Shown here piece by piece: positions 2,312-57,770 of a stretch of DNA of 64,000 nucleotides (position 1 is the first letter of the stretch; the number at the start of each line of letters is the position of its first letter). Source of the stretch: Escherichia phage AV111. Position numbers and translations under genes: made by a program. The stretch lies in the sequence record OR352941.1. The stretch is one strand, 5' to 3'. The notes beneath the pieces were generated by a model. The model made no database searches, had not been told where the DNA came from, and was given only the letters and a program-made list of their open reading frames with translations.

Positions 2312-3637
2312 TCAAAGTGCCTCCAAGTCTTTAGTGTACTCTGTCACAACATCAGTAGACTTCCAATACTCATTTTCTTCTTTCTTAGCTTTAGCTTCTT
2401 CTGCTAGTTTACGTGCTTCATCGGAAGTGATATGGAAGATGTTAAGACCTACCAGTTTATCGACATGTTCTTTATACATTTCGATTTGTGCTAGCTCTTC
2501 AGTCAAAGCTTTACGAGTCTTGCCCTGAATCACAATTTCGCCGCTGATAACTTTTTTGATGAAGTGTGCCTTAGCAAAAGCAAGTTTAAATGCTTTTTCA
2601 GATTCAATGATTTTGTTATCAATACGTTTCTGAACGTAAGTCTTACGGACTTCAACAAAATCTTTGATTAAGTCCACTACGTTATCATAGACCGCTAATT
2701 TACCCTTTTCATTAATCACTGTGATGTTTTGTGAACGACGTTCTATGAGACTAAAATCTTTCATGATTTTTTCATGACGTAGCTCTTCATCATCAGGAAG
2801 CGAGTACTCTTTACGGAACTTCACCTTAAACCCAAAGCCGTGTTCACCGCAATCATCTTCCCATGAGATTAGACCTTTGTCTTCCAACGGGTCAAGAACC
2901 TTACTCACATACGTTTCACGGTCGAATTTATATGGGATTTCAGTTATCTGCATTTGAGTGCGAGATGTGAACTTATATGTTCCGTGAATCTCATAACGCC
3001 CATCAACTTCATGTACTTCACCACGGAATTCCGGGAATTCAACTTTTGGCTTAGTGACATTTTTACCTTGAAGAGCTTGTAATACAGCCTTTTTTACCGA
3101 TTTAAAACTATGAGGCAGAATATTTGTTGCGTAACCGGTTGCAATACCAGAGACGCCATTCAAAAGAACTGTCGGAATAATAGGAAGATAGAATTTTGGT
3201 GGAATGTGTTCTTTATCTTCATGAGCTGGAGCATATTCAGTATCTTTATATACGTTATAGAAATTTTTACTTACACGAGCAAAAATATAACGAGATGCTG
3301 CAGCTTTTTGGACTGTTCGAGAACCAAAGTTGCCTTGGCCATCTAACAGTGGATAGTTGTTGTTCCATGTGTTAGCCATCAATGCACCTGCATCTTGTGC
3401 AGAAGATTCACCATGGTGATAACCTAAATCTGCAACACCGCCTGCAATTGACGCAAGTTTATGAAATTTTTCTTTATTGCCACGAGCCAAATCTAACGCA
3501 CGATGAACCACAAAACGTTGAACCGGCTTAAATCCATCAATCATGTTTGGGATTGCACGGTTTTCAACGGTGTACATCGCATATGCTAAGGCTTCGTTAT
3601 CAATAATACTTTTTAGATTACGAGAATTCAATTGCAT
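2312..3637 (-). CDS. 52: DNA topoisomerase II medium subunit gp52
   Basis: 441 aa; GyrA-like; matches T4 gp52 length and synteny. Confidence 0.9.
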   Translation of the reverse strand: MQLNSRNLKSIIDNEALAYAMYTVENRAIPNMIDGFKPVQRFVVHRALDLARGNKEKFHKLASIAGGVADLGYHHGESSAQDAGALMANTWNNNYPLLDGQGNFGSRTVQKAAASRYIFARVSKNFYNVYKDTEYAPAHEDKEHIPPKFYLPIIPTVLLNGVSGIATGYATNILPHSFKSVKKAVLQALQGKNVTKPKVEFPEFRGEVHEVDGRYEIHGTYKFTSRTQMQITEIPYKFDRETYVSKVLDPLEDKGLISWEDDCGEHGFGFKVKFRKEYSLPDDEELRHEKIMKDFSLIERRSQNITVINEKGKLAVYDNVVDLIKDFVEVRKTYVQKRIDNKIIESEKAFKLAFAKAHFIKKVISGEIVIQGKTRKALTEELAQIEMYKEHVDKLVGLNIFHITSDEARKLAEEAKAKKEENEYWKSTDVVTEYTKDLEAL

Positions 3638-3641
3638 ATTT

Positions 3642-3782
3642 TCACCATATTAATGAACGAATAACCATTATAACATCCGAAATGAAAAGCACTACTTGGA
3701 TTAGTCCAAACATCACACCGTAGTACAGAACCGTAAGCAACAACAAGAGCCCGAAGGCTCCTGCTAAGATTTTCTTAATCAT
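3642..3782 (-). CDS. small hydrophobic protein (46 aa), ac/52.1-like position
   Basis: ATG at 3780-3782, ends 3 nt before gene 52 ATG; below ORF-track length cutoff. Confidence 0.4.
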   Translation of the reverse strand: MIKKILAGAFGLLLLLTVLYYGVMFGLIQVVLFISDVIMVIRSLIW

Positions 3783-3928
3783 TACTCGCCTTTTAACACG
3801 TTAAAAAGAGCTAAGACCGCTAAGGTGCCTTGTGATACGGCCTGTTGAAATACCGTTGTTTCGCCTGTAACTAAAGTGTTAACGAATAAAAACGACCAAC
3901 ACAACAATGCAATAATCCATGATACCAT
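3782..3928 (-). CDS. small hydrophobic protein (48 aa)
   Basis: GAGGT RBS; stop overlaps the next ATG (TAATG). Confidence 0.4.
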   Translation of the reverse strand: MVSWIIALLCWSFLFVNTLVTGETTVFQQAVSQGTLAVLALFNVLKGE

Positions 3929-3980
3929 TTTAATTACCTCAAAAATAAATTAAAGGCCCAACTTAATAGGCCTGTATAAA

Positions 3981-4427
3981 TTAGTAACTCTGCAGAATGA
4001 ATTTGAAATTATCTGCCAGAAGACGGTTCATTTCAGTGAGTGTTTGATATTCTGATGTATGGTTGCGAGTGAATGCCAGAGCCAATTGACCTTTACCATA
4101 ACCAGTGGTCAGTGGTTTCATGTTCTTAGCTGCAACAAAGATTACATCATATTCAATATTGTTAGTGCCCATGGTACGGGCTAGTTGTGAACGGCCTTGA
4201 CGAATGTGAGAAAGAATTGCATCCAACCCTTGTTTAGAACGTTGACGTCCTACAAAGAATCGTGCTGCTACTTGTCGCCAATCAGATGAACCTTTAACAA
4301 AGAAGTAAAAACCTTCACGAGAACGAAACTCTTTAGAAACTTCAGAACCGTATTCGCCATTACGAACTACTGCAACAACTTCACCACCAACTGCCAGAAG
4401 GTCTTTACGAGTTAAATATTTGGACAT
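3981..4427 (-). CDS. ndd: nucleoid disruption protein Ndd
   Basis: 148 aa; RQRSKQG...[20 protein letters not shown]...[17 protein letters not shown] matches T4 Ndd as recalled. Confidence 0.9.
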
Positions 4428-4471
4428 GCTAATTTCCTCAATTGATTAATGTTTTTGTAATCCATGAGAGC

Positions 4472-4500
4472 ATTATACTCTGCTCTCAAGAGTTTGTACA
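4472..4500 (-). promoter_or_regulatory. early promoter upstream of ndd (-35 TGTACA, 17 nt, -10 TATAAT)
   Basis: hexamers read from sequence. Confidence 0.55.
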
Positions 4501-4503
4501 ATT

Positions 4504-4704
4504 TTATTCGGCTATATCAGAACGTTCAAAAAGCTCTTCAACAGTTAAACATTCAGTGTCATCTTCAATAAAGAATCGAGTCCAACACGTTGGGGCGATA
4601 CAGTTATGAGTTTGTCCGGCTATAGAAGCTACACGAATAAGCTGCTGGCCATTATTCAGGACAAATTTTTCACCAATTTCAACATCTTTAAAAAGCTTAG
4701 CCAT
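4504..4704 (-). CDS. hypothetical protein (66 aa)
   Basis: ORF in track, ATG start, RBS, own promoter. Confidence 0.5.
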   Translation of the reverse strand: MAKLFKDVEIGEKFVLNNGQQLIRVASIAGQTHNCIAPTCWTRFFIEDDTECLTVEELFERSDIAE

Positions 4705-4732
4705 TTTGTTTTCCTCTTGATTTGATGTGATT

Positions 4733-4762
4733 ACTATACCATAATCCTATCGTGATGTAAAC
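4733..4762 (-). promoter_or_regulatory. early promoter (-35 GTTTAC, 18 nt, -10 TATAGT)
   Basis: read from sequence; -10 flanked by GATTA/TAATC repeat. Confidence 0.5.
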
Positions 4763-4764
4763 AA

Positions 4765-4875
4765 TTAAATTACATTAAAATATGTTAAAGCCAACCATGT
4801 TCCAGTGAACGAACATGCAATGTAAAAACCAGTATCACAAATTGTTCTTAGTACAATAAGAAGTGCATTTTTCAT
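4765..4875 (-). CDS. tiny hydrophobic protein (36 aa)
   Basis: ATGA overlap with upstream tiny ORF; GAGGT RBS. Confidence 0.3.
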   Translation of the reverse strand: MKNALLIVLRTICDTGFYIACSFTGTWLALTYFNVI

Positions 4876-4958
4876 AAGTACCTCAATGCAATTGAAAATA
4901 TTATACAAATCATAGGGATACTAAGCAACCATATTCCAATCCACATTTTAGAGCTCAT
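4872..4958 (-). CDS. tiny hydrophobic protein (28 aa)
   Basis: ATG overlaps stop of ORF 4955..5218 (ATGA). Confidence 0.3.
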   Translation of the reverse strand: MSSKMWIGIWLLSIPMICIIFSIALRYL

Positions 4959-5218
4959 ATCTCAACTTCCGCGAGTTCCATATATCCTTTGTTGATAACC
5001 TCTTTAAGGTCTTTAGAAAGAATGACATTAAAATGGTCGTTCATATGTCCATTAACTAAACGAGTTATTTCGGCTTCAGATGACATATAAGGCACGTCCG
5101 AGTCCCAATGAGATAGACCCAAATGGGTATAAATCATCCCTTCGTCGTCTGCAGTGTTGTACATTGAAACAAATTCGCCTGTTACTTTATGTTTTGCGTA
5201 GAAAAATTTAAATTTCAT
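4955..5218 (-). CDS. hypothetical protein (87 aa)
   Basis: ORF in track, ATG start, own promoter. Confidence 0.5.
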   Translation of the reverse strand: MKFKFFYAKHKVTGEFVSMYNTADDEGMIYTHLGLSHWDSDVPYMSSEAEITRLVNGHMNDHFNVILSKDLKEVINKGYMELAEVEI

Positions 5219-5244
5219 GATGTTATCCTCTTTTAGATAGGACT

Positions 5245-5274
5245 ACTATATCATAGTCCTACTTAGTTGTAAAC
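5245..5274 (-). promoter_or_regulatory. early promoter (-35 GTTTAC, 18 nt, -10 TATAGT) with AGGACTA/TAGTCCT repeat around the -10
   Basis: read from sequence. Confidence 0.5.
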
Positions 5275-5286
5275 ACTTTTATGAAA

Positions 5287-5844
5287 TTAAAGATGAAGAT
5301 ACCACCCGTTGTAGTTGCTCTTGCGGACGATTTTCTTTAGGTCTTCATGGTCTCCCACGAACTTTATAGAATAGGAGAAGACGTCAGGTGAGGTTTCTTT
5401 GACATCTAATATAATAATGCAATCTGCGACTCGATGGTTCAAGAAGGGCCCTATATTGATTCCATTACCACCAGGATAATCACCACTGTATCCTGTGGTA
5501 ACCGAAATCCATTTAGAATCTATCTGGTGCGTCTTGACTTCGACACGCAACCCGCAATATTTAGGATGAGCTAACACGTCCCATGCATACGTGTACGGGT
5601 CTTCTACGTCTTCAATACCTTTATTAACATATCCATCTAGCCAATTTGCTACTACATACTCTGCAAAGACCGCAACCTTACAACGTCGAACAACGTCTTC
5701 TTTTATTTGACCTGGATCTTGTTTCAACGAGTACCGAGCAGTATCAGCGATCTTAACCTTCATTTCGCTAGTCAAAAACTCATTCGACAGGATAAATGTC
5801 GGAAGACTCTTCAGCCTCAACAGCCCCAAGTTCGTCTTTACCAT
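5287..5844 (-). CDS. denB: endonuclease IV DenB-like
   Basis: track ORF is 206 aa; internal ATG at 5844 with AGAGG RBS gives 185 aa, the T4 DenB length; synteny between ndd and rIIB. Confidence 0.7.
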   Translation of the reverse strand: MVKTNLGLLRLKSLPTFILSNEFLTSEMKVKIADTARYSLKQDPGQIKEDVVRRCKVAVFAEYVVANWLDGYVNKGIEDVEDPYTYAWDVLAHPKYCGLRVEVKTHQIDSKWISVTTGYSGDYPGGNGINIGPFLNHRVADCIIILDVKETSPDVFSYSIKFVGDHEDLKKIVRKSNYNGWYLHL

Positions 5845-6067
5845 AGATACCTCTGATGTGTAGTTCGCCAAAATAAATGCGGTCACCTTCTTCAAGATAT
5901 TCTGCATCTACAGGCGGAATTTCAATAACAACTTCGTCGCATTCTAACCAGCCGTAGTGTGCATCACCAGGATGTTTTACCAATTTAGCGCAATAAACTG
6001 ATTTACACTTATGATGACCACGAAGATTAGCAATTTTGGATTCTGATACGTCAAATGGATGAATCAT
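5780..6067 (-). CDS. hypothetical protein (95 aa), overlaps denB 5' end
   Basis: ATG at 6067 with RBS; overlap makes it uncertain. Confidence 0.3.
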   Translation of the reverse strand: MIHPFDVSESKIANLRGHHKCKSVYCAKLVKHPGDAHYGWLECDEVVIEIPPVDAEYLEEGDRIYFGELHIRGIYGKDELGAVEAEESSDIYPVE

Positions 6068-6087
6068 AATTACCCCTAAAGAAAAAA

Positions 6088-6103
6088 GGGGACCGAAGTC
6101 CCC
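6088..6103 (-). terminator. intrinsic terminator GGGGAC-UUCG-GUCCCC plus U6 tract, downstream of rIIB
   Basis: perfect 6-bp stem, UUCG loop, UUUUUUCUUU tail on minus RNA. Confidence 0.65.
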
Positions 6104-6108
6104 AATTA

Positions 6109-7044
6109 TTATTCTGCAAATAATTCAGTAACGTCTGAAATTACTTCATAACGACAAGTACGCATCTTAGCATCACCATAGTCAACTGGGATAGATACAA
6201 CATCACGTGGATGAACTTTAACCTTAACAACTTTATCTGAGCTAGAACCAAAGTAACGAATATATGATTTAGCACAAACATGTAGACCACGGGAGCAGGT
6301 TTGAGTATCATCATCGTTAACACGAGTACGAGGCATTGAAACAACTTTACCAGGCGAGTTATCAAATGTGCCGCTATAGCAATCTAAATAGTCTTTACGA
6401 ACTACTTTCCACGCATAGAAATGCCCATCTTCAGTGATTTCAATATCGTTTGCAACCAAGAAGTCGAATAAACGTTGTACAGCTTTTTCGCTTGGGTTTT
6501 CTAACAGGTTTTCAAGGAACGGCAGATAGAATTTAAAGTCTTCGCCTTTTTCCATGGAATCAATAATACGATTAACCAGTCCTGAACGAATCTCTATACC
6601 TTGATAAAATAAACTACCACCTTCAATAGTAACATTACCATCAACAAACTTAGTAATAGCTTTCTTGATGTTAATAAGTTCGACAGCTTTACTAAGGTTT
6701 CCTGCGACCAGATTAGCTTTAATTTCTTCAAAATTTGCATGACTTGATGGGGTCGCATTGTATGCTACGCGTCCTTCAATAATTGAAATAAATTTAGATG
6801 ACGCGTTCCATACGATTTCAGGACGATGTCCGCCGATAATAGGTTCATCATTTTCTGGGACCTGTTCTTCGTCTTCAAATTCAGCTGCTTTCTCTTCAGC
6901 TTTAAAATTCTTAACAATCTTACGAAGAGTATCTGTTGAAATGTCAAAGTAATCGGCAATTTCTTTACGGGTCCATTTGCCTGATTTAACCAGGCCATAA
7001 GCTTCTAACTGTTCTTCTTGGGACAAGCATTTGATATTGTACAT
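6109..7044 (-). CDS. rIIB: rIIB protein
   Basis: 311 aa; MYNIKCL... N-terminus and length match T4 rIIB; coupled to rIIA. Confidence 0.9.
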   Translation of the reverse strand: MYNIKCLSQEEQLEAYGLVKSGKWTRKEIADYFDISTDTLRKIVKNFKAEEKAAEFEDEEQVPENDEPIIGGHRPEIVWNASSKFISIIEGRVAYNATPSSHANFEEIKANLVAGNLSKAVELINIKKAITKFVDGNVTIEGGSLFYQGIEIRSGLVNRIIDSMEKGEDFKFYLPFLENLLENPSEKAVQRLFDFLVANDIEITEDGHFYAWKVVRKDYLDCYSGTFDNSPGKVVSMPRTRVNDDDTQTCSRGLHVCAKSYIRYFGSSSDKVVKVKVHPRDVVSIPVDYGDAKMRTCRYEVISDVTELFAE

Positions 7045-43752: not shown

Positions 43753-44439
43753 TTAGAAGTCGTGAGTAGAATCGGCTTCCATTGCAATAACATAACTTAC
43801 TTGAGAGCTTTCAAACTTGGCTGCAACTTTATCACCAGCTCCCCACAACATTACTTTATAGTTACCTGGCTGGATTTTCATATTAGCCATATTGATTACG
43901 AAGTTAAAGTTGTTAGAACCATCATAATCGGTAAGAGTCAAAGAATACTTAGGACGAGTTAGTCCGGAATCTTCAACTTTATTATAGCCATTGATAACAA
44001 TTTTACCATCTTTATTTGTAATAGCAATTATATCAATCTGAAGACCACGTGAAACTCGAAGCAATTGTTGAAGGTCTTCAGCTTTAATTTCAGTAATCAC
44101 AGAAGCCACTGGGAATTGAATTGGCTTATTAGGAAAAACAATGGTGCTCTTGTCAGCGGCAGGCCAATAAACTGTGGAACGTGTATCTGCAATTTTAATA
44201 TTGCCATCGGTGTGCATTGAAATTTCAGCATCATCGGACACTAGACTCAAAATGCTTAAGAAGCTATTCAAATCATAAAGTGCTACGTCAAAATCAATTT
44301 CATCAGAGATATTTGCTTCCGCATAAGTGGTGCCATTAACTGCACGAGTCATAATAAATTTACCTTGACTAAGCAGAATGCCAGAGTTAATAGAAGCGAA
44401 GTTTTTCAGAATATTTACGGTTTCACGGCTAAGTTTCAT
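43753..44439 (-). CDS. 45: sliding clamp gp45
   Basis: 228 aa; near-identical to T4 gp45 as recalled. Confidence 0.95.
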   Translation of the reverse strand: MKLSRETVNILKNFASINSGILLSQGKFIMTRAVNGTTYAEANISDEIDFDVALYDLNSFLSILSLVSDDAEISMHTDGNIKIADTRSTVYWPAADKSTIVFPNKPIQFPVASVITEIKAEDLQQLLRVSRGLQIDIIAITNKDGKIVINGYNKVEDSGLTRPKYSLTLTDYDGSNNFNFVINMANMKIQPGNYKVMLWGAGDKVAAKFESSQVSYVIAMEADSTHDF

Positions 44440-44711
44440 TTAGGTTTCCTATTAGCATAATAATTTGTCCAAGACCGGATAGCACCTTGGTATGATTCAT
44501 CATTAAAACCATGCTGAATTGCATGTTTTCTAAATGTAATATAACTTGGTTTTCCTAAAGCAATCCACAATTCCTTTAATTTTTGTTCATGAAATATCCA
44601 TGTACCTCTAGCTTTAGATTTTCTGAATTTATCCTTAAATTCTTTGGTTGCATTTCTTTTCGAAGCTGCGATAGAGGCCTTTGCTCTATTTTCAGGTTTA
44701 GACCAATACAA
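44436..44711 (-). pseudogene. ORF without any ATG; resembles a Seg endonuclease C-terminal module; possible frameshifted remnant (or rpbA-region gene)
   Basis: track start is TTG and there is no internal Met; by-eye similarity to the C-terminal part of the Seg protein at 56441..57262. Confidence 0.3.
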
Positions 44712-45325
44712 TGTTTTAGATATTTTATTTTATCTTTAACATTAGGAGAATTCATTATATCTTTAAATTTTAAAGCAAAATCTCTATCGCTAAACATTTT
44801 TTTAGAACGAATAGAAACTTTCTCTCTTCGTTCTTTGGTCCAATATGTTTTTTGAAATTCTCTAATTGCGTTTAAATGATTCTCCGACAATTTGCAATTT
44901 TTTCTAACACCGACGTAATCTTCATTTATTTCGTTTTTAGAAAGTTTTACTATTTTGCCTGTTTTTAAATTTTTATACGGTGCATATCCTTTAGCTGATA
45001 TTCTAGACTTCTCGTTAGCATAAGCCTTATTAAAATATTTTTCATTTGAAACGGCTTTAACATTGAGTTGGAATAGTCTTTCTATTCTTCTAGGGTCTAA
45101 TGTGGTTTCGCCTAAAATTTTTACAGAATATTCGCCTTGGTCTATTAATCTGTTATATAAAGGAGAATACGAGGAATTAACACTACCGGTATATATTTTA
45201 CCGGTAGAATCTTCAATAATATCCTTTCCATTAAAATGACACGAAACTTTAGAACCTATATAATAACACGGGTATTCATTTTTAATCTCACGATTATAAA
45301 AGGTTATAAGATATATTAAATTCAT
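44576..45325 (-). CDS. Seg-like GIY-YIG homing endonuclease
   Basis: N-terminal YYIGSK...NGKDII...YTGS motif; ATG at 45325; inserted between 45 and 46 regions. Confidence 0.6.
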   Translation of the reverse strand: MNLIYLITFYNREIKNEYPCYYIGSKVSCHFNGKDIIEDSTGKIYTGSVNSSYSPLYNRLIDQGEYSVKILGETTLDPRRIERLFQLNVKAVSNEKYFNKAYANEKSRISAKGYAPYKNLKTGKIVKLSKNEINEDYVGVRKNCKLSENHLNAIREFQKTYWTKERREKVSIRSKKMFSDRDFALKFKDIMNSPNVKDKIKYLKHCIGLNLKIEQRPLSQLRKEMQPKNLRINSENLKLEVHGYFMNKN

Positions 45326-45330
45326 AATTA

Positions 45331-45747
45331 TCAAGCAGCAACCATCTGCTTTTTAATAGCTTCAGGCAGTGATTCAATATATTCTGGAATTTTAGAAGCA
45401 ACAATTTCGCCAGCTGCAATTAGTTGTTCGTCGGCATCAACACAGTAAAAATCTTCAAGGCGTTCAGAACCGTCTTTATCAAGAACGATTTTAGCACCTG
45501 CTTCGATAGAATCTTTATAGTGCTTACGCATCAAATGAATCCACATATCAGACACATCGTTATCAATAAAACCATAAATCATAAAACGAGTTTCTTGTGG
45601 CAAAGATTGGAGTTTTTTAGCACTTGCGTCATCACAATGCAGGACCCATGCTTTACGAACACGATTATGGTTATGCGGGTTAGCGTCAGTACGGATAGAA
45701 GTAACTTTCAGATCAGCAGCGGTAAAACCTTTAGCAGTAGTAAACAT
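45331..45747 (-). CDS. hypothetical protein (138 aa)
   Basis: ORF in track. Confidence 0.5.
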   Translation of the reverse strand: MFTTAKGFTAADLKVTSIRTDANPHNHNRVRKAWVLHCDDASAKKLQSLPQETRFMIYGFIDNDVSDMWIHLMRKHYKDSIEAGAKIVLDKDGSERLEDFYCVDADEQLIAAGEIVASKIPEYIESLPEAIKKQMVAA

Positions 45748-54165: not shown

Positions 54166-54636
54166 TTAATCATGTTTCCACACCCCATCGGTATTTGACC
54201 AAAGTCGCTGATTATCTGATCCTCGCCACAGCTTTTTAGTCGGAAGATTTTTCTCATACTTCCCATCAATAATAACATCAACATATTTAAGCATTTCTAG
54301 TTGTTTAATATCTTCAAACTTATATCCTGTCCACAACCAAATGCTTTTATTGGGATAAAGATTTTTTACTGTTTGAACAATGCAATGAATAACATCTCGA
54401 TTATCAGGATAGAGAGGGTCTCCTCCGGTTATAGTCAATCCTTCTATATAATCGTTATTCAAACATTCAATTAATTGTTCTAGTGTTTCACCAGTGAATG
54501 GAATACCATTTCTAGCATTCCATGTTGATTTATTATAGCACCCTTCACATTTATGCAAACAACCTGTAACGAAAAGAACGACCCTGCATCCAGGGCCATT
54601 CACAAAATCGCAAGGATAAAATCTATCATAATTCAT
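54166..54636 (-). CDS. nrdG: anaerobic ribonucleotide reductase activating protein NrdG (radical SAM)
   Basis: 156 aa; CX3CX2C motif CLHKCEGC near the N-terminus; synteny with nrdD. Confidence 0.9.
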   Translation of the reverse strand: MNYDRFYPCDFVNGPGCRVVLFVTGCLHKCEGCYNKSTWNARNGIPFTGETLEQLIECLNNDYIEGLTITGGDPLYPDNRDVIHCIVQTVKNLYPNKSIWLWTGYKFEDIKQLEMLKYVDVIIDGKYEKNLPTKKLWRGSDNQRLWSNTDGVWKHD

Positions 54637-56450
54637 TGGTGTTTAACCCTATGCATGATTTCTTTATTTTTGCCGAGATTAAATCCGCGTTCGTTCGGGT
54701 TTCCCAAATAACCGCATGTTCTTCTTATGGTGTTCATCTTTTTAGGATCAGTTTCTCCGCAAACTGAACAAACAAATCCGTTTTCAGTAGGAGTCATTTC
54801 ATGGGTACTTCCACATGTAAAACATTTATCTACTGGCATATTAACACCAAAATAATCTAAATGTTGTGCAGCATAATCCCACACGGCCTCAAGTCCTTTT
54901 AAGTTATTTTTCATATCAGGAAGTTCAACATAAGAAATGTGACCACCTGTCGCAATGAAATGATATGGCGCTTCACGAGAAATCTTTTCAAACGGAGTAA
55001 TATTTTCTTCTACTGAAACGTGGAAACTGTTAGTGTACCAGCCTTTATCGGTAACATCTTTTACACTTCCATATTTTTCTGTATCGAGTTTACAGAAGCG
55101 ATAACAAAGGTTTTCAGCAGGAGTAGAATACAAACTAAAAGCAAAACCAGTTCTTTCAGTCCACTGCTTAAGATGAGCATTCATTTTAGTTAAAATTTCT
55201 TGCCCAATATCACGGCCGACAAGAATATTCAATTCGTGAATACCAATGTATCCTAAAGACACTGAACTTCTACCGTTTTTAAATAACTCAATTATGTCGT
55301 CATCAGGTTTAAGACGAACCCCGAATGCACCTTCTTGGTAAAGAATAGGAGCTACAGTTGCTTTAACTCCTTTTAAGGAACTAATTCTACACATCAAAGC
55401 TTCAAAACACAGGTCCATTCGTTCGTTAAATAGCTCAACAAATTTCTGTTCATTGAACTGTGTTCCAATATAAGAATCTAACGCAATACGAGGAAGATTC
55501 AGTGTTACAACACCAAGATTATTACGTCCATCAAGAATTTCATTACCAGTCGAATCTTTCCATACGCTCAAGAAACTACGGCAACCCATTGGAGAAACTG
55601 GAACTGAAGAACCGGTAATAGCTTTATTATTCTTAACCGAAATAATGTCAGGATACATTCTTTTGCTTGCACATTCTAACGCAAGTTGTTTAATATCATA
55701 GTTTGGATCATCTTTATAAAGATTAACACCTTCTTCAACAAACATAACAAGTTTAGGAAAAATAGGAGTTATTCCATCACGACCAAGACCTTTAATGCGG
55801 TTTTTAAGAATTGCCTTCTGAATCATTCGTTCAGTCCAATCGGTTCCCGTACCAAATGTAATTGTTACAAAAGGAGTTTGTCCGTTTGAACTAAAGAGAG
55901 TGTTTACTTCATATTCATAAGCTTGGAATGCATCGTATACGTCTTTTTCTGTTTTAGATTGAGCATAATTCAACGCGTCAGCGATTTGCCATTTTTCTGC
56001 ATCTTCAACATGTTTAGCGTATGTACGTTTAACATAAGGAGAAAGAACTTTATCGACATTCGCAAAAGTCGTTCCGCCGTATTGGTGTGAAGCAACTTGT
56101 GCAGTAATTTGTGCCATAATTGCAGTAGCAACACCAATCGATTTAGGCGTTTCAATTTGAGCATTGCCTAATTTAAATCCGTTCTCAAGCATCCCTTTTA
56201 AATCTACTAAACAACAATTAGTAAAAGGCAATGATATACTGTAATCTAAATCATGAAAATGAATTAACCCGGCATTATGAGCATTTACAATATGGCTTGG
56301 AAGAATACTGCAAGCGATATGTTTAGAAACAATACCGGCCATTAAATCTCTTTTTGTTGGAAAGACACGAGAATCTTTGTTGGCGTTTTCGGTATTTAAT
56401 TCTTTATCTTTATTTGAAATAAAATTTAAAACATCTTTCTCTAAAGACAT
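54633..56450 (-). CDS. nrdD: anaerobic ribonucleoside-triphosphate reductase NrdD
   Basis: 605 aa; C-terminal glycyl-radical motif RTCGYLG; uninterrupted ORF. Confidence 0.95.
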   Translation of the reverse strand: MSLEKDVLNFISNKDKELNTENANKDSRVFPTKRDLMAGIVSKHIACSILPSHIVNAHNAGLIHFHDLDYSISLPFTNCCLVDLKGMLENGFKLGNAQIETPKSIGVATAIMAQITAQVASHQYGGTTFANVDKVLSPYVKRTYAKHVEDAEKWQIADALNYAQSKTEKDVYDAFQAYEYEVNTLFSSNGQTPFVTITFGTGTDWTERMIQKAILKNRIKGLGRDGITPIFPKLVMFVEEGVNLYKDDPNYDIKQLALECASKRMYPDIISVKNNKAITGSSVPVSPMGCRSFLSVWKDSTGNEILDGRNNLGVVTLNLPRIALDSYIGTQFNEQKFVELFNERMDLCFEALMCRISSLKGVKATVAPILYQEGAFGVRLKPDDDIIELFKNGRSSVSLGYIGIHELNILVGRDIGQEILTKMNAHLKQWTERTGFAFSLYSTPAENLCYRFCKLDTEKYGSVKDVTDKGWYTNSFHVSVEENITPFEKISREAPYHFIATGGHISYVELPDMKNNLKGLEAVWDYAAQHLDYFGVNMPVDKCFTCGSTHEMTPTENGFVCSVCGETDPKKMNTIRRTCGYLGNPNERGFNLGKNKEIMHRVKHQ

Positions 56451-57262
56451 AATTCTAATTTATCCTTTTGAAATTCTTCGTCTAAATATGGGTTCCAACC
56501 CATTTTAAACCTTTTGATGAAATTATCAATTCTAAATTTCGGTAAGTTTAAATCCGCAAAAATAGATGATTTACTTTTAAAATCTGGACCTAAATAATCA
56601 TATAAAATTTCTGCGTATTTTAACCATAATATATAAGTACCAGATTTAATTGCTCTCGGAGTTTTCCAAGGTTTTACACCATACATCGGATTTCCACTTC
56701 CTTTATGCCTGATAGAAGATGAAATTCCAATTTTAATTTTAGCTTCCTCTGTATGCGAAAATCCATGATGTGGATTTTCTTTCCAGTATTTTTTAGAAGC
56801 TTCTGATATTTTCTTTCTGGCTAAATTAGTATGATGCTTTCCATAAAATCCATGATTTTTACCTTTATTACGATTTCTTTTAATCATGGTTATTGATTGC
56901 TTTTTTCTAGTTTCTTTAGAAGGAGAAACACCATACGTTGTAAATTGACCATTAGCATATGCTAAATTAAAATACTCTTTATTCCATATATCTTTTTCTA
57001 TATTCTTTTGAAATTCAGCTTCAATGCTAGTTATTTGCTCATCTCCGACTAATTGAAAATATAATATTTCAACTTTCGGCGTTTCTTTCAACAGGGCTTT
57101 TTGAAATTCGGAAGATGACGAAGACGAATAATAAAATTTACCATTTTTATCAATAATATTCGTTCCGTCAAAAGTGCAATTAGTTTTACTTCCAATGTAA
57201 TAATATGGCGGGGTTTTAGCATTAATTCTATTAATAAATGATAGTTTATATACTACATTCAT
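56441..57262 (-). CDS. Seg-like GIY-YIG homing endonuclease
   Basis: YYYIGSK...NGKFYY N-terminal motif, NUMOD-like repeats; ATGA overlap with gene 49 stop and overlap with nrdD start. Confidence 0.7.
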   Translation of the reverse strand: MNVVYKLSFINRINAKTPPYYYIGSKTNCTFDGTNIIDKNGKFYYSSSSSSEFQKALLKETPKVEILYFQLVGDEQITSIEAEFQKNIEKDIWNKEYFNLAYANGQFTTYGVSPSKETRKKQSITMIKRNRNKGKNHGFYGKHHTNLARKKISEASKKYWKENPHHGFSHTEEAKIKIGISSSIRHKGSGNPMYGVKPWKTPRAIKSGTYILWLKYAEILYDYLGPDFKSKSSIFADLNLPKFRIDNFIKRFKMGWNPYLDEEFQKDKLELCL

Positions 57263-57732
57263 TTTAAACTCTTTCTAAGCTGCTTTTTGAATGAAGCTAT
57301 TAATTGTGTTTTAGTATCAGATTCATTATATTCAAATCCTCTTTGAAGCATCTCAGCCATCATTTCCTCTTTGCCTAGTCTTGAGAACTCTTTAGTTTTG
57401 TCTGGAACAAAATTAGGATGGATATTATTATCAGAATAATCTTGTTTCAAATAAGCAAGAAGAGCTTCAAGCCATTCGAGGTAGTCAACATCACGTCCTT
57501 TAAGACCGGAACGATTGAACTTATGCTTCATTTGGCCTTCTGCTGCGTTGCACAGAGAACAGAGTAACCCACGAACTCTACCGGCTTTTGGCCCGTTTAA
57601 TTCGTGGTCGTGGTCAAGATGGTTACCTTGAACATCAGGGTCTAATTCACGGTGGCAAATAGGACACTTACCATTCTGTGCATCATAAAATTTTTGTTTT
57701 TCTTCTTTGTATAATTTGCCAGATAATAACAT
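57259..57732 (-). CDS. 49: endonuclease VII gp49 (Holliday junction resolvase)
   Basis: 157 aa; near-identical to T4 gp49 as recalled. Confidence 0.95.
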   Translation of the reverse strand: MLLSGKLYKEEKQKFYDAQNGKCPICHRELDPDVQGNHLDHDHELNGPKAGRVRGLLCSLCNAAEGQMKHKFNRSGLKGRDVDYLEWLEALLAYLKQDYSDNNIHPNFVPDKTKEFSRLGKEEMMAEMLQRGFEYNESDTKTQLIASFKKQLRKSLK

Positions 57733-57762
57733 AATAAACCCTTACCATATATAAGATAAGGG

Positions 57763-57770
57763 TATTTATA
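57763..57770 (-). promoter_or_regulatory. late promoter TATAAATA (minus strand) about 31 nt upstream of the gene 49 ATG
   Basis: exact late consensus octamer. Confidence 0.55.

Follow-up and report, generated by a model that had tools for sequence, protein, structure and literature searches.

The question raised by one locus of Escherichia phage AV111 (sequence record OR352941.1) is why an additional open reading frame (ORF) lies between gene 49, which encodes endonuclease VII, and nrdD, which encodes the large subunit of the anaerobic ribonucleotide reductase. The stretch analyzed, called the window here, comprises 64,000 nucleotides (nt) of a Mosigvirus (RB69-like) genome, whose closest relatives outside the insert are WFbE185 and JK45 (96.4% identical). 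The ORF is a genuine, intact and unnamed SegG-like homing endonuclease gene at a site that is not described in the literature searched, and it belongs to a known class rather than to a new system. Intronless homing is the best-supported reading of the locus, in which the cut, its position and protection by the adjoining nrdD sequence are presumptive. Specifically, the chances are judged to be about even that the ORF encodes an active or recently active free-standing SegG-like GIY-YIG homing endonuclease and forms, together with the first 225 nt of nrdD, a single mobile cassette of about 1.03 kb. The features on which this reading is built are as follows, with positions in the window.

56441 to 57262, minus strand: free-standing homing endonuclease gene of the SegG-like GIY-YIG family, recognized by its ORF, PHROG 7504, similarity to T4 SegG and the same site in 49 records
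56945 to 57262, minus strand: N-terminal nuclease domain, residues 1-106, with VVY (GIY), YYYIGSK (YIG), Glu81 and Asn99
56678 to 56875, minus strand: NUMOD3 DNA-binding repeats, residues ~130-195 (Pfam NUMOD3, two stretches; profile match to 1i3j)
56444 to 56677, minus strand: C-terminal helical domain, residues 196-273, presumed to mediate sequence-specific DNA binding
57259 to 57262, minus strand: ATGA in which the gene 49 stop overlaps the endonuclease start, read from the sequence
56441 to 56450, minus strand: 10-nt overlap of the endonuclease end and its stop TAG with the new nrdD start, ATGTCTTTAG
56226 to 56450, minus strand: endonuclease-linked divergent nrdD 5' tract, nt 1-225 (codons 1-75), defined by fixed differences
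54633 to 56450, minus strand: nrdD, anaerobic ribonucleotide reductase large subunit, 605 amino acids (aa), no intron, its 5' end being the presumed target
57259 to 57732, minus strand: gene 49 (endonuclease VII), native Mosigvirus-type allele and left flank of the insert (Pfam and identity scan)

The ORF starts with ATG, encodes 273 aa and has the same orientation as its two neighbors. The intergenic space is zero on both sides. Gene 49 (157 aa; Pfam Endonuclease_7 and EndoVII dimerisation domain) ends in ...TTTAAAATGA, and the ATG of its final ATGA is the start of the ORF, while the last 10 nt of the ORF overlap the nrdD ATG. In the window nrdD is a single unbroken ORF (Pfam NRDD, 2.5e-171) that overlaps nrdG by 4 nt with nothing between them; the coding sequence of T4 nrdD is joined from two pieces around the I-TevII intron. 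A preliminary description of this DNA had noted the overlaps at the ATGA and over 10 nt and an nrdD of 605 aa uninterrupted by an intron, and all of this was confirmed. It had also named a comparison with T4 as a check, and that comparison bears out the insertion: T4 and RB69 have nothing at this position, and in both, as well as in the gene-less phages APCEc01, LF82-5 and Shf125875, a single ATGA contains the stop of gene 49 together with the start of nrdD.

The protein is Seg-like, as had been proposed. It matches PHROG 7504, 'homing endonuclease', at 5.7e-34, and its residues 1-126 align with T4 SegG at 40% identity (BLASTP, E 3e-27 over 128 residues). Pfam NUMOD3 (PF07460) is found in two stretches (1.2e-8; 35.2 bits vs a gathering cut-off of 20.4), and a family profile over these repeats matches the I-TevI DNA-binding domain 1i3j (E 0.0018). 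The 25 homologues retrieved have a common N-terminal domain with the pattern Y5...YYYIGSK...E81...YFN99. Conserved in 21-22 relatives are Y5, R12, P19, Y20, Y22, I23, G24, S25, K26, N28 and Y44 and, in the second part of the domain, S47, E81, Y97, F98, N99 and A103. The counterparts of the GIY and YIG motifs are VVY at residues 3-5 and YYYIGS at residues 20-25, with conservation of 90% or more for Y5, Y20, Y22, I23 and G24 among 21-22 members. E81 and N99 match the metal-binding Glu and the conserved Asn that a GIY-YIG enzyme should have, and neither varies in the family alignment. The conserved basic residues are Lys26 and Arg12, the latter between the GIY and YIG motifs.

An AlphaFold2 model, computed from an alignment that left out T4 SegG, has pLDDT values of 88-96 for most of residues 1-100 and poor values elsewhere. 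Its first two beta strands (E2-8 and E21-26) carry the GIY/YIG-type motifs, the helix bearing Arg12 is inserted between them, and a hairpin follows the YIG strand. The domain has the alpha/beta fold of GIY-YIG enzymes, and the best fold match of the protein is the GIY-YIG domain of I-TevI. At the other end of the protein, the last 80 residues align at 40% identity (E 2e-15) with the C-terminus of a SegG-like protein of 212 aa, P0004, whose gene lies between genes 59 and 32 and is the positional SegG orthologue. No significant similarity was found between the C-termini of T4 SegG and the endonuclease. With its SegG-like N-terminus, NUMOD3 repeats and P0004-like C-terminus, the endonuclease is therefore a paralogue of SegG into which a NUMOD3 linker has been inserted.

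The ORF is also under purifying selection. It is intact in all 10 copies that were fetched, and in each of the listed high-identity records tblastn gave a single unbroken alignment of residues 1-273. The mean Nei-Gojobori dN/dS is 0.17 (9 distinct copies, 36 non-independent pairs), and among the polymorphic codons of the nuclease domain 12 have only synonymous changes and 4 change the amino acid. Because of the intact ORFs, the unbroken alignments and the low dN/dS, a working protein is favored over a relic. Together with the PHROG 7504 and NUMOD3 matches, the same intact copies and dN/dS also show that this is no chance ORF.

The distribution of the gene is sporadic. The full insert is present in 48 of the 833 T4-like records that match a query spanning 49-nrdD; in junction-spanning records without it the matched stretch is 812 bp shorter and the two genes abut. 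The gene itself occurs in 49 records, or about 43 distinct phages after GenBank/RefSeq duplicates are accounted for, always at the 49/nrdD site and with 97-99.8% identity. In a sliding comparison, the endonuclease gene is 96-100% identical between the window and the Tequatrovirus carriers, whereas the interior of the window's gene 49 is 70-81% identical to the same genomes and 95-100% identical to the gene-less Mosigvirus genomes RB69, APCEc01 and LF82-5. WFbE185 and JK45 are not among the carriers, and APCEc01 lacks the gene while belonging to the same species as the carrier JK42. Since a near-identical gene occurs across genera beside a divergent gene 49, the carriers are sporadic and the GC content is low (28.5% for the gene vs 36.9% for the whole window), the distribution is the signature of recent lateral spread. 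Scans of IMG/VR and JGI metagenomes for distant homologues at the site yielded only three more near-identical copies. The sole divergent example is a contig of 4714 bp from a more distant T4-like phage (L013, Logan SRR27536177; 2188-3180), where a 58%-identical homologue lies between gene 49 and nrdD.

The insertion does not end at the nrdD start. BLAST alignments of the window to every gene-less genome resume only about 60 nt inside nrdD, and a comparison of 7 gene-carrying with 5 gene-less genomes revealed 75 fixed differences in nrdD nt 1-225 and zero in nt 226-360. This tract is 51-72% identical to the gene-less alleles and 93-100% identical among gene-carrying genomes of both genera. Relative to RB69, the first 120 nrdD codons contain 34 synonymous and 29 non-synonymous codon differences, nearly all within the first 75. 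The boundary at nt 225 falls just upstream of the invariant PFTNCC codons, a block that contains the active-site Cys79 of T4 NrdD. A megablast search with the tract alone returned 49 records, 48 of which also carry the endonuclease, and the next best match in the phage collection is 76% identical. The GC content of the linked tract is 30.7% vs 34.7% for the native tract. From the sharp boundary and the near-complete linkage, the mobile unit, of about 1.03 kb, would comprise not only the endonuclease gene but also 225 nt of nrdD that are foreign or recoded, with its left edge exactly at the ATGA. The preliminary description had overlooked this linkage, as well as the takeover of the nrdD start signals.

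That takeover is evident from the left edge of the insert. Gene-carrying and gene-less genomes agree fully in the sequence ...AGAAAGAGTTTAAAATGA, and therefore the endonuclease uses the ribosome-binding site (RBS) and ATG that nrdD uses in gene-less phages. Its translation is probably coupled to the gene 49 stop. The new nrdD ATG lies inside the last codons of the endonuclease with AAGGA 12 nt upstream, and the L013 homologue has an equivalent overlap with its nrdD start. The expression signals of the locus are the following.

56417 to 56465, minus strand: predicted RNA hairpin over the new nrdD Shine-Dalgarno sequence (AAGGA) and AUG, from the fold
57325 to 57350, minus strand: MotA-box-like middle promoter motif inside the gene 49 3' end, a pattern match with putative function
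57763 to 57770, minus strand: T4-type late promoter box TATAAATA upstream of gene 49, an exact match
57738 to 57763, minus strand: terminator-like hairpin between the upstream ORF and gene 49

The region 56411-56510 folds with -19.8 kcal/mol (z -2.4), and 5 of 200 shuffled sequences fold as well. The predicted hairpin is a weak indication that nrdD translation may be coupled to translation of the endonuclease ORF. For transcription, the late-promoter box TATAAATA (57770-57763) just upstream of gene 49 is one of two on that strand in the whole window. The MotA box and -10 motif (TGCTTCA, 13 nt, TATAAT; 57350-57325) is, like the late-promoter box, a motif match only. T4, RB69 and every gene-carrying genome share its sequence, which is also conserved in gene-less phages, in which it would serve nrdD. 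The records of G8, Lutter and fPS-2 annotate a terminator where the hairpin precedes gene 49 in the window. For transcription of nrdD from sigma-70-like promoters within the ORF there is likewise no support, their matches not being above chance. According to the preliminary description, the ORF has no promoter or terminator of its own and must ride on the gene 49 transcript. The ORF is indeed promoter-less, and no terminator-like sites were found between gene 49, the ORF and nrdD; the transcript, however, need not be that of gene 49 alone. In essence the view of a gene that lacks its own signals is correct, and it agrees with the promoter-less cassettes of T4 (PMC2988022).

These features can be assembled into a mechanism. 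The endonuclease gene would be transcribed with gene 49 and nrdD, whether from the late promoter upstream of gene 49, by read-through or from the MotA-type motif in gene 49, and its translation, from the former nrdD ATG and RBS, would be coupled to the end of gene 49 translation. During mixed infection, the enzyme would cleave the nrdD allele of the gene-less phage inside or beside the first 225-270 bp, and repair of the double-strand break would copy from the gene-carrying genome. Because the tract, with about 62% identity, is too diverged for crossovers, these would resolve to the left in the conserved gene 49 3' end and to the right in the part of nrdD that follows nt 225. With no homology in the divergent tract at which crossovers could occur, it would be inherited as one block with the endonuclease gene. 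The variant tract would probably render the carrier's own nrdD a poor substrate. Finally, the endonuclease 3' end would supply the new RBS and ATG of nrdD, whose translation may then depend on that of the endonuclease ORF.

Three natural alleles depart from the arrangement in the window. In L013, an ORF of 55 codons comes after gene 49 and represents a piece of a native-type nrdD 5' end (...VFPTQRDLLAGIISKH...); the native fragment ends at codon 57, where it shares an ATGA with the endonuclease start. The endonuclease homologue is split by a frameshift near residue 47-50 and is followed by a full nrdD, whose N-terminus contains ELNTENANKD...VFPTKRD as in the endonuclease-linked variant. Some gene-less alleles have ATGAATG, the first 7 nt of the endonuclease gene, at nrdD codons 57-58, which suggests that the left end in L013 was joined at microhomology; this is a single example and may be coincidence. 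OLB35 (MH992122.1, flagged UNVERIFIED; L021 2480-2560) has no endonuclease gene, and its nrdD of 605 aa begins with MNVVYKL, the first seven codons of the endonuclease, joined in frame onto the variant tract. It looks like a deletion scar, that is, a gene-less allele that has kept the variant tract. In FL18 (PP400780.1; L022 2497-3988), endonuclease nt 1-604 are kept, the protein is truncated after residue ~202 and the remnant is fused to the last ~20 codons of nrdD, which is otherwise deleted. Next come a different GIY-YIG gene (276 aa; weak SegE_GIY-YIG and I-TevI DNA-binding Pfam matches) and nrdG.

A number of points weigh against an active homing endonuclease that is protected by its own tract, beginning with the fact that endonuclease activity, target and self-immunity are all inferred. 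No Pfam GIY-YIG model matches the protein, and in the family alignment no conserved Arg follows YIG, so that the canonical catalytic Arg, which in I-TevI is Arg27, has no obvious counterpart. A Foldseek search of the model against the PDB gave nothing significant (I-TevI ranked 14th, E 7.8), and a single-protein sequence search of the PDB found no match even at E 10. Profile-profile alignment (hhalign) to canonical GIY-YIG domains, in which the I-TevI row serves as a label only, recovered the Glu81 block alone, with E81 weakly placed opposite the canonical Glu (33 columns, probability 28%). The promoter-like matches in the region, 14 vs 9.8 +/- 3.3 expected, are not above chance. In addition, SegH and Hef reportedly cut their own genomes as well; a protective role of the tract is for that reason not required, and the tract could hitch-hike.

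Part of this list concerns the motif itself, whose loss on alignment would, according to the preliminary description, have spoken against the idea. On alignment the motif is retained only in its SegG form (VVY, YIG, Glu81 and Asn99), without a Pfam match and with no canonical Arg located after YIG. T4 SegG likewise matches no Pfam family, so the miss is a property of the SegG branch rather than a sign of decay. T4 SegG also has the same motif pattern.

The main rival to homing with a cut in or next to the first 225-270 bp of nrdD is also an active homing endonuclease, one that cuts elsewhere: in nrdD just past nt 225 (PFTNCC), in the gene 49 3' end or further away. The tract would then be hitch-hiking donor DNA from a phage lineage in which the gene first sat upstream of nrdD. 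This explanation is possible, if rather unlikely. Free-standing endonucleases can cut hundreds of bp from their own gene (PMC2988022). Moreover, the tract ends abruptly beside sequence that is identical in all alleles, and its low GC content and the lack of a close relative in the collection fit a foreign origin. The native nrdD fragment of L013 ends at codon 57, so that its insertion point differs from that in the window, and the cutting of gene-carrying DNA that is said to occur with SegH and Hef would point the same way. In contrast, the simplest way to account for the linkage in 48 of 49 records, and for an endonuclease-linked variant of the nrdD 5' end in the distant L013, is that the tract is important for the element, although linkage is also expected from the lack of homology inside the tract.

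Less likely is that the gene is a domesticated or catalytically dead remnant, which has been kept because its start signals are swapped with those of nrdD and clean deletion is hard. The position of the nrdD ATG and AAGGA Shine-Dalgarno sequence inside the ORF and within the predicted hairpin would be consistent with such retention, as would the absence of an identifiable catalytic Arg, and embedded signals have been discussed for T4 as favoring retention of endonuclease genes (PMC2988022). On the other hand, the dN/dS and the excess of synonymous-only codons in the nuclease domain extend the signal of selection across the ORF, near-identical copies in two genera with divergent flanks imply recent transfer, and T4 SegG, with the same motif pattern, is listed as an active endonuclease (PMC2988022 Table 1). 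In OLB35 the in-frame deletion of the gene leaves a full-length nrdD ORF, and retention is therefore not forced. Because of the selection signal, the recent spread and this viable deletion, a dead relic is considered improbable.

An active homing endonuclease linked to its tract remains preferred, and it can be extended, tentatively and with the balance of probability somewhat against it, to a two-part cassette. The endonuclease gene and the recoded nrdD 5' end would together remove the element's own target, allow it to settle in or at the start of a coding gene while leaving that gene functional, and make nrdD translation dependent on the element. If so, L013 would be a snapshot of invasion into a coding sequence, OLB35 a gene-less but resistant allele, and FL18 a case of host gene loss associated with endonuclease genes at both ends. 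The complete life cycle of a homing gene would then be visible in sequenced isolates at a single locus.

Other endonuclease genes occur near this site in some phages and elsewhere in the window. G8 (L008) and fPS-2 (L009), in the locus 3001-6822, carry the gene together with a group I intron with I-TevII that interrupts nrdD after about 537 nt; the idea that the gene excludes the nrdD intron was rejected, both being present in these two phages. Since a third endonuclease gene lies beyond nrdD in fPS-2, three of them can border or split nrdD simultaneously. In PD112 (L007 ~5562-5940) the interval from the nrdD end to nrdG is ~235-300 bp longer than in the window, and the annotation gives a shortened nrdG; the extra sequence may be the remnant of an element at the mobC/SegH site. 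The preliminary description had called the ORF the second Seg-like gene, which is correct, since a paralogue lies at 44576-45334 (minus strand), presumably the first gene that it had in mind. This SegG-like ORF of ~249-252 aa is 31% identical to the 49/nrdD endonuclease (E 9e-14), has no Pfam match and a GC content of 28.3%, and is located between rpbA (45331-45747) and gene 45 (43753-44439).

Two further observations concern related sequences. P0003 (273 aa; L014 4001-4822, ENA contig NODE_202, 90.8 kb) has a nuclease domain that is 56% identical and an unrelated C-terminal half, and its gene is flanked by the gene for the gp5 baseplate lysozyme and by one that matches Pfam Phage_T4_Y07E; it illustrates domain shuffling between insertion sites. 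In Pu-Krd-SF3 and Pu-Krd-SF4 (PQ249397.1 and PQ759884.1; H18, H19, H299 and H300) the match exceeds the query by 1 bp (823 vs 822 and 809 vs 808 nt), which could be a frameshifted copy or a homopolymer sequencing error.

The locus is of interest because free-standing homing endonucleases drive localized gene exchange and marker exclusion in T-even phages, and ribonucleotide reductase genes are favorite targets. The gene would add a third endonuclease site of nrdD, beside the I-TevII intron and the mobC/SegH site, and its carriers include phages now gathered for therapeutic use and for typing. Most useful at this locus are the recoded tract linked to the gene and the set of natural alleles. The 225-nt tract together with the empty, occupied, deleted and decayed alleles constitutes a ready-made system for studying two questions: does recoding of the target allow a free-standing endonuclease to spare the genome that carries it, and by what route do such genes come to lie in coding regions? 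The annotation can also be improved. Many GenBank records already label the gene 'homing endonuclease', several say 'hypothetical protein', and the label 'SegG homing endonuclease' in Shigella phage JK42 (MK962756.1, L001 4001-4822) is a misnomer.

That the gene is simply SegG, as this JK42 label has it, or SegH, known from some T-even phages as a seg-like gene adjacent to nrdD (title of Sandegren et al. 2005, NAR 33:6203, cited in PMC2988022), and hence a characterized enzyme in its usual place, can be dismissed as very improbable, since T4 SegG is found at 59/32 and not at 49/nrdD and aligns only with residues 1-126, the mobC/SegH site between nrdG and nrdD (PMC2988022 Table 1; the T4 annotation agrees) is empty in the window, and NUMOD3 is all that links the endonuclease to the GIY-YIG gene which FL18 has at its nrdD/nrdG site (E 0.004). 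SegH identity is rejected by locus only. The literature searched yielded no named or tested endonuclease between gene 49 and nrdD and no mapped nrdD middle promoter.

T4 SegG (gene 32.1) is among the closest known systems. In addition to the N-terminal pattern MNxVY...KTPPYYYIGSK...E...YFNL, both genes are free-standing, promoter-less and co-oriented with their neighbors, and both lie directly upstream of the expected target gene and carry its expression signals (PMC2988022). They differ in size, SegG having 210 aa and the 49/nrdD endonuclease 63 residues more with the NUMOD3 repeats inserted, and in spacing, since SegG is separated from gene 32 by 55 bp whereas the 49/nrdD endonuclease overlaps both neighbors. 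P0004, the orthologue at the 59/32 site, resembles the endonuclease in its C-terminal domain as well. The ribonucleotide reductase region is a known hot spot for homing endonuclease genes (PMC2988022), and SegH, a seg-like GIY-YIG gene that replaces mobC, is likewise free-standing, next to nrdD and sporadic in T-even-type phages (PMC2988022). It is set apart by locus only, occupying the other end of nrdD; the U5 record AY262145 contains nrdD and nrdG only. I-TevI, the endonuclease of the td intron and the structural archetype of GIY-YIG enzymes, is intron-encoded, unlike the 49/nrdD gene.

In its arrangement the locus is also similar to the 'intronless homing' of T4 MobE and SegF with localized marker exclusion, where the endonuclease gene again lies between two conserved genes and its inheritance is expected to drag along the flank of a nucleotide-metabolism gene (PMC2988022). 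More generally, the seg and mob genes of T4 are promoter-less, overlapping and translationally coupled, with co-conversion of their flanks (PMC2988022). The mobE start overlaps the upstream stop as UAAUGA (PMC2988022) and that of the 49/nrdD endonuclease as AAAUGA. MobE, in contrast, is an HNH enzyme. Furthermore, the flank inherited with the 49/nrdD gene is not a graded co-conversion tract as with MobE and SegF, but a sharply bounded block of 225 nt that is about 38% diverged.

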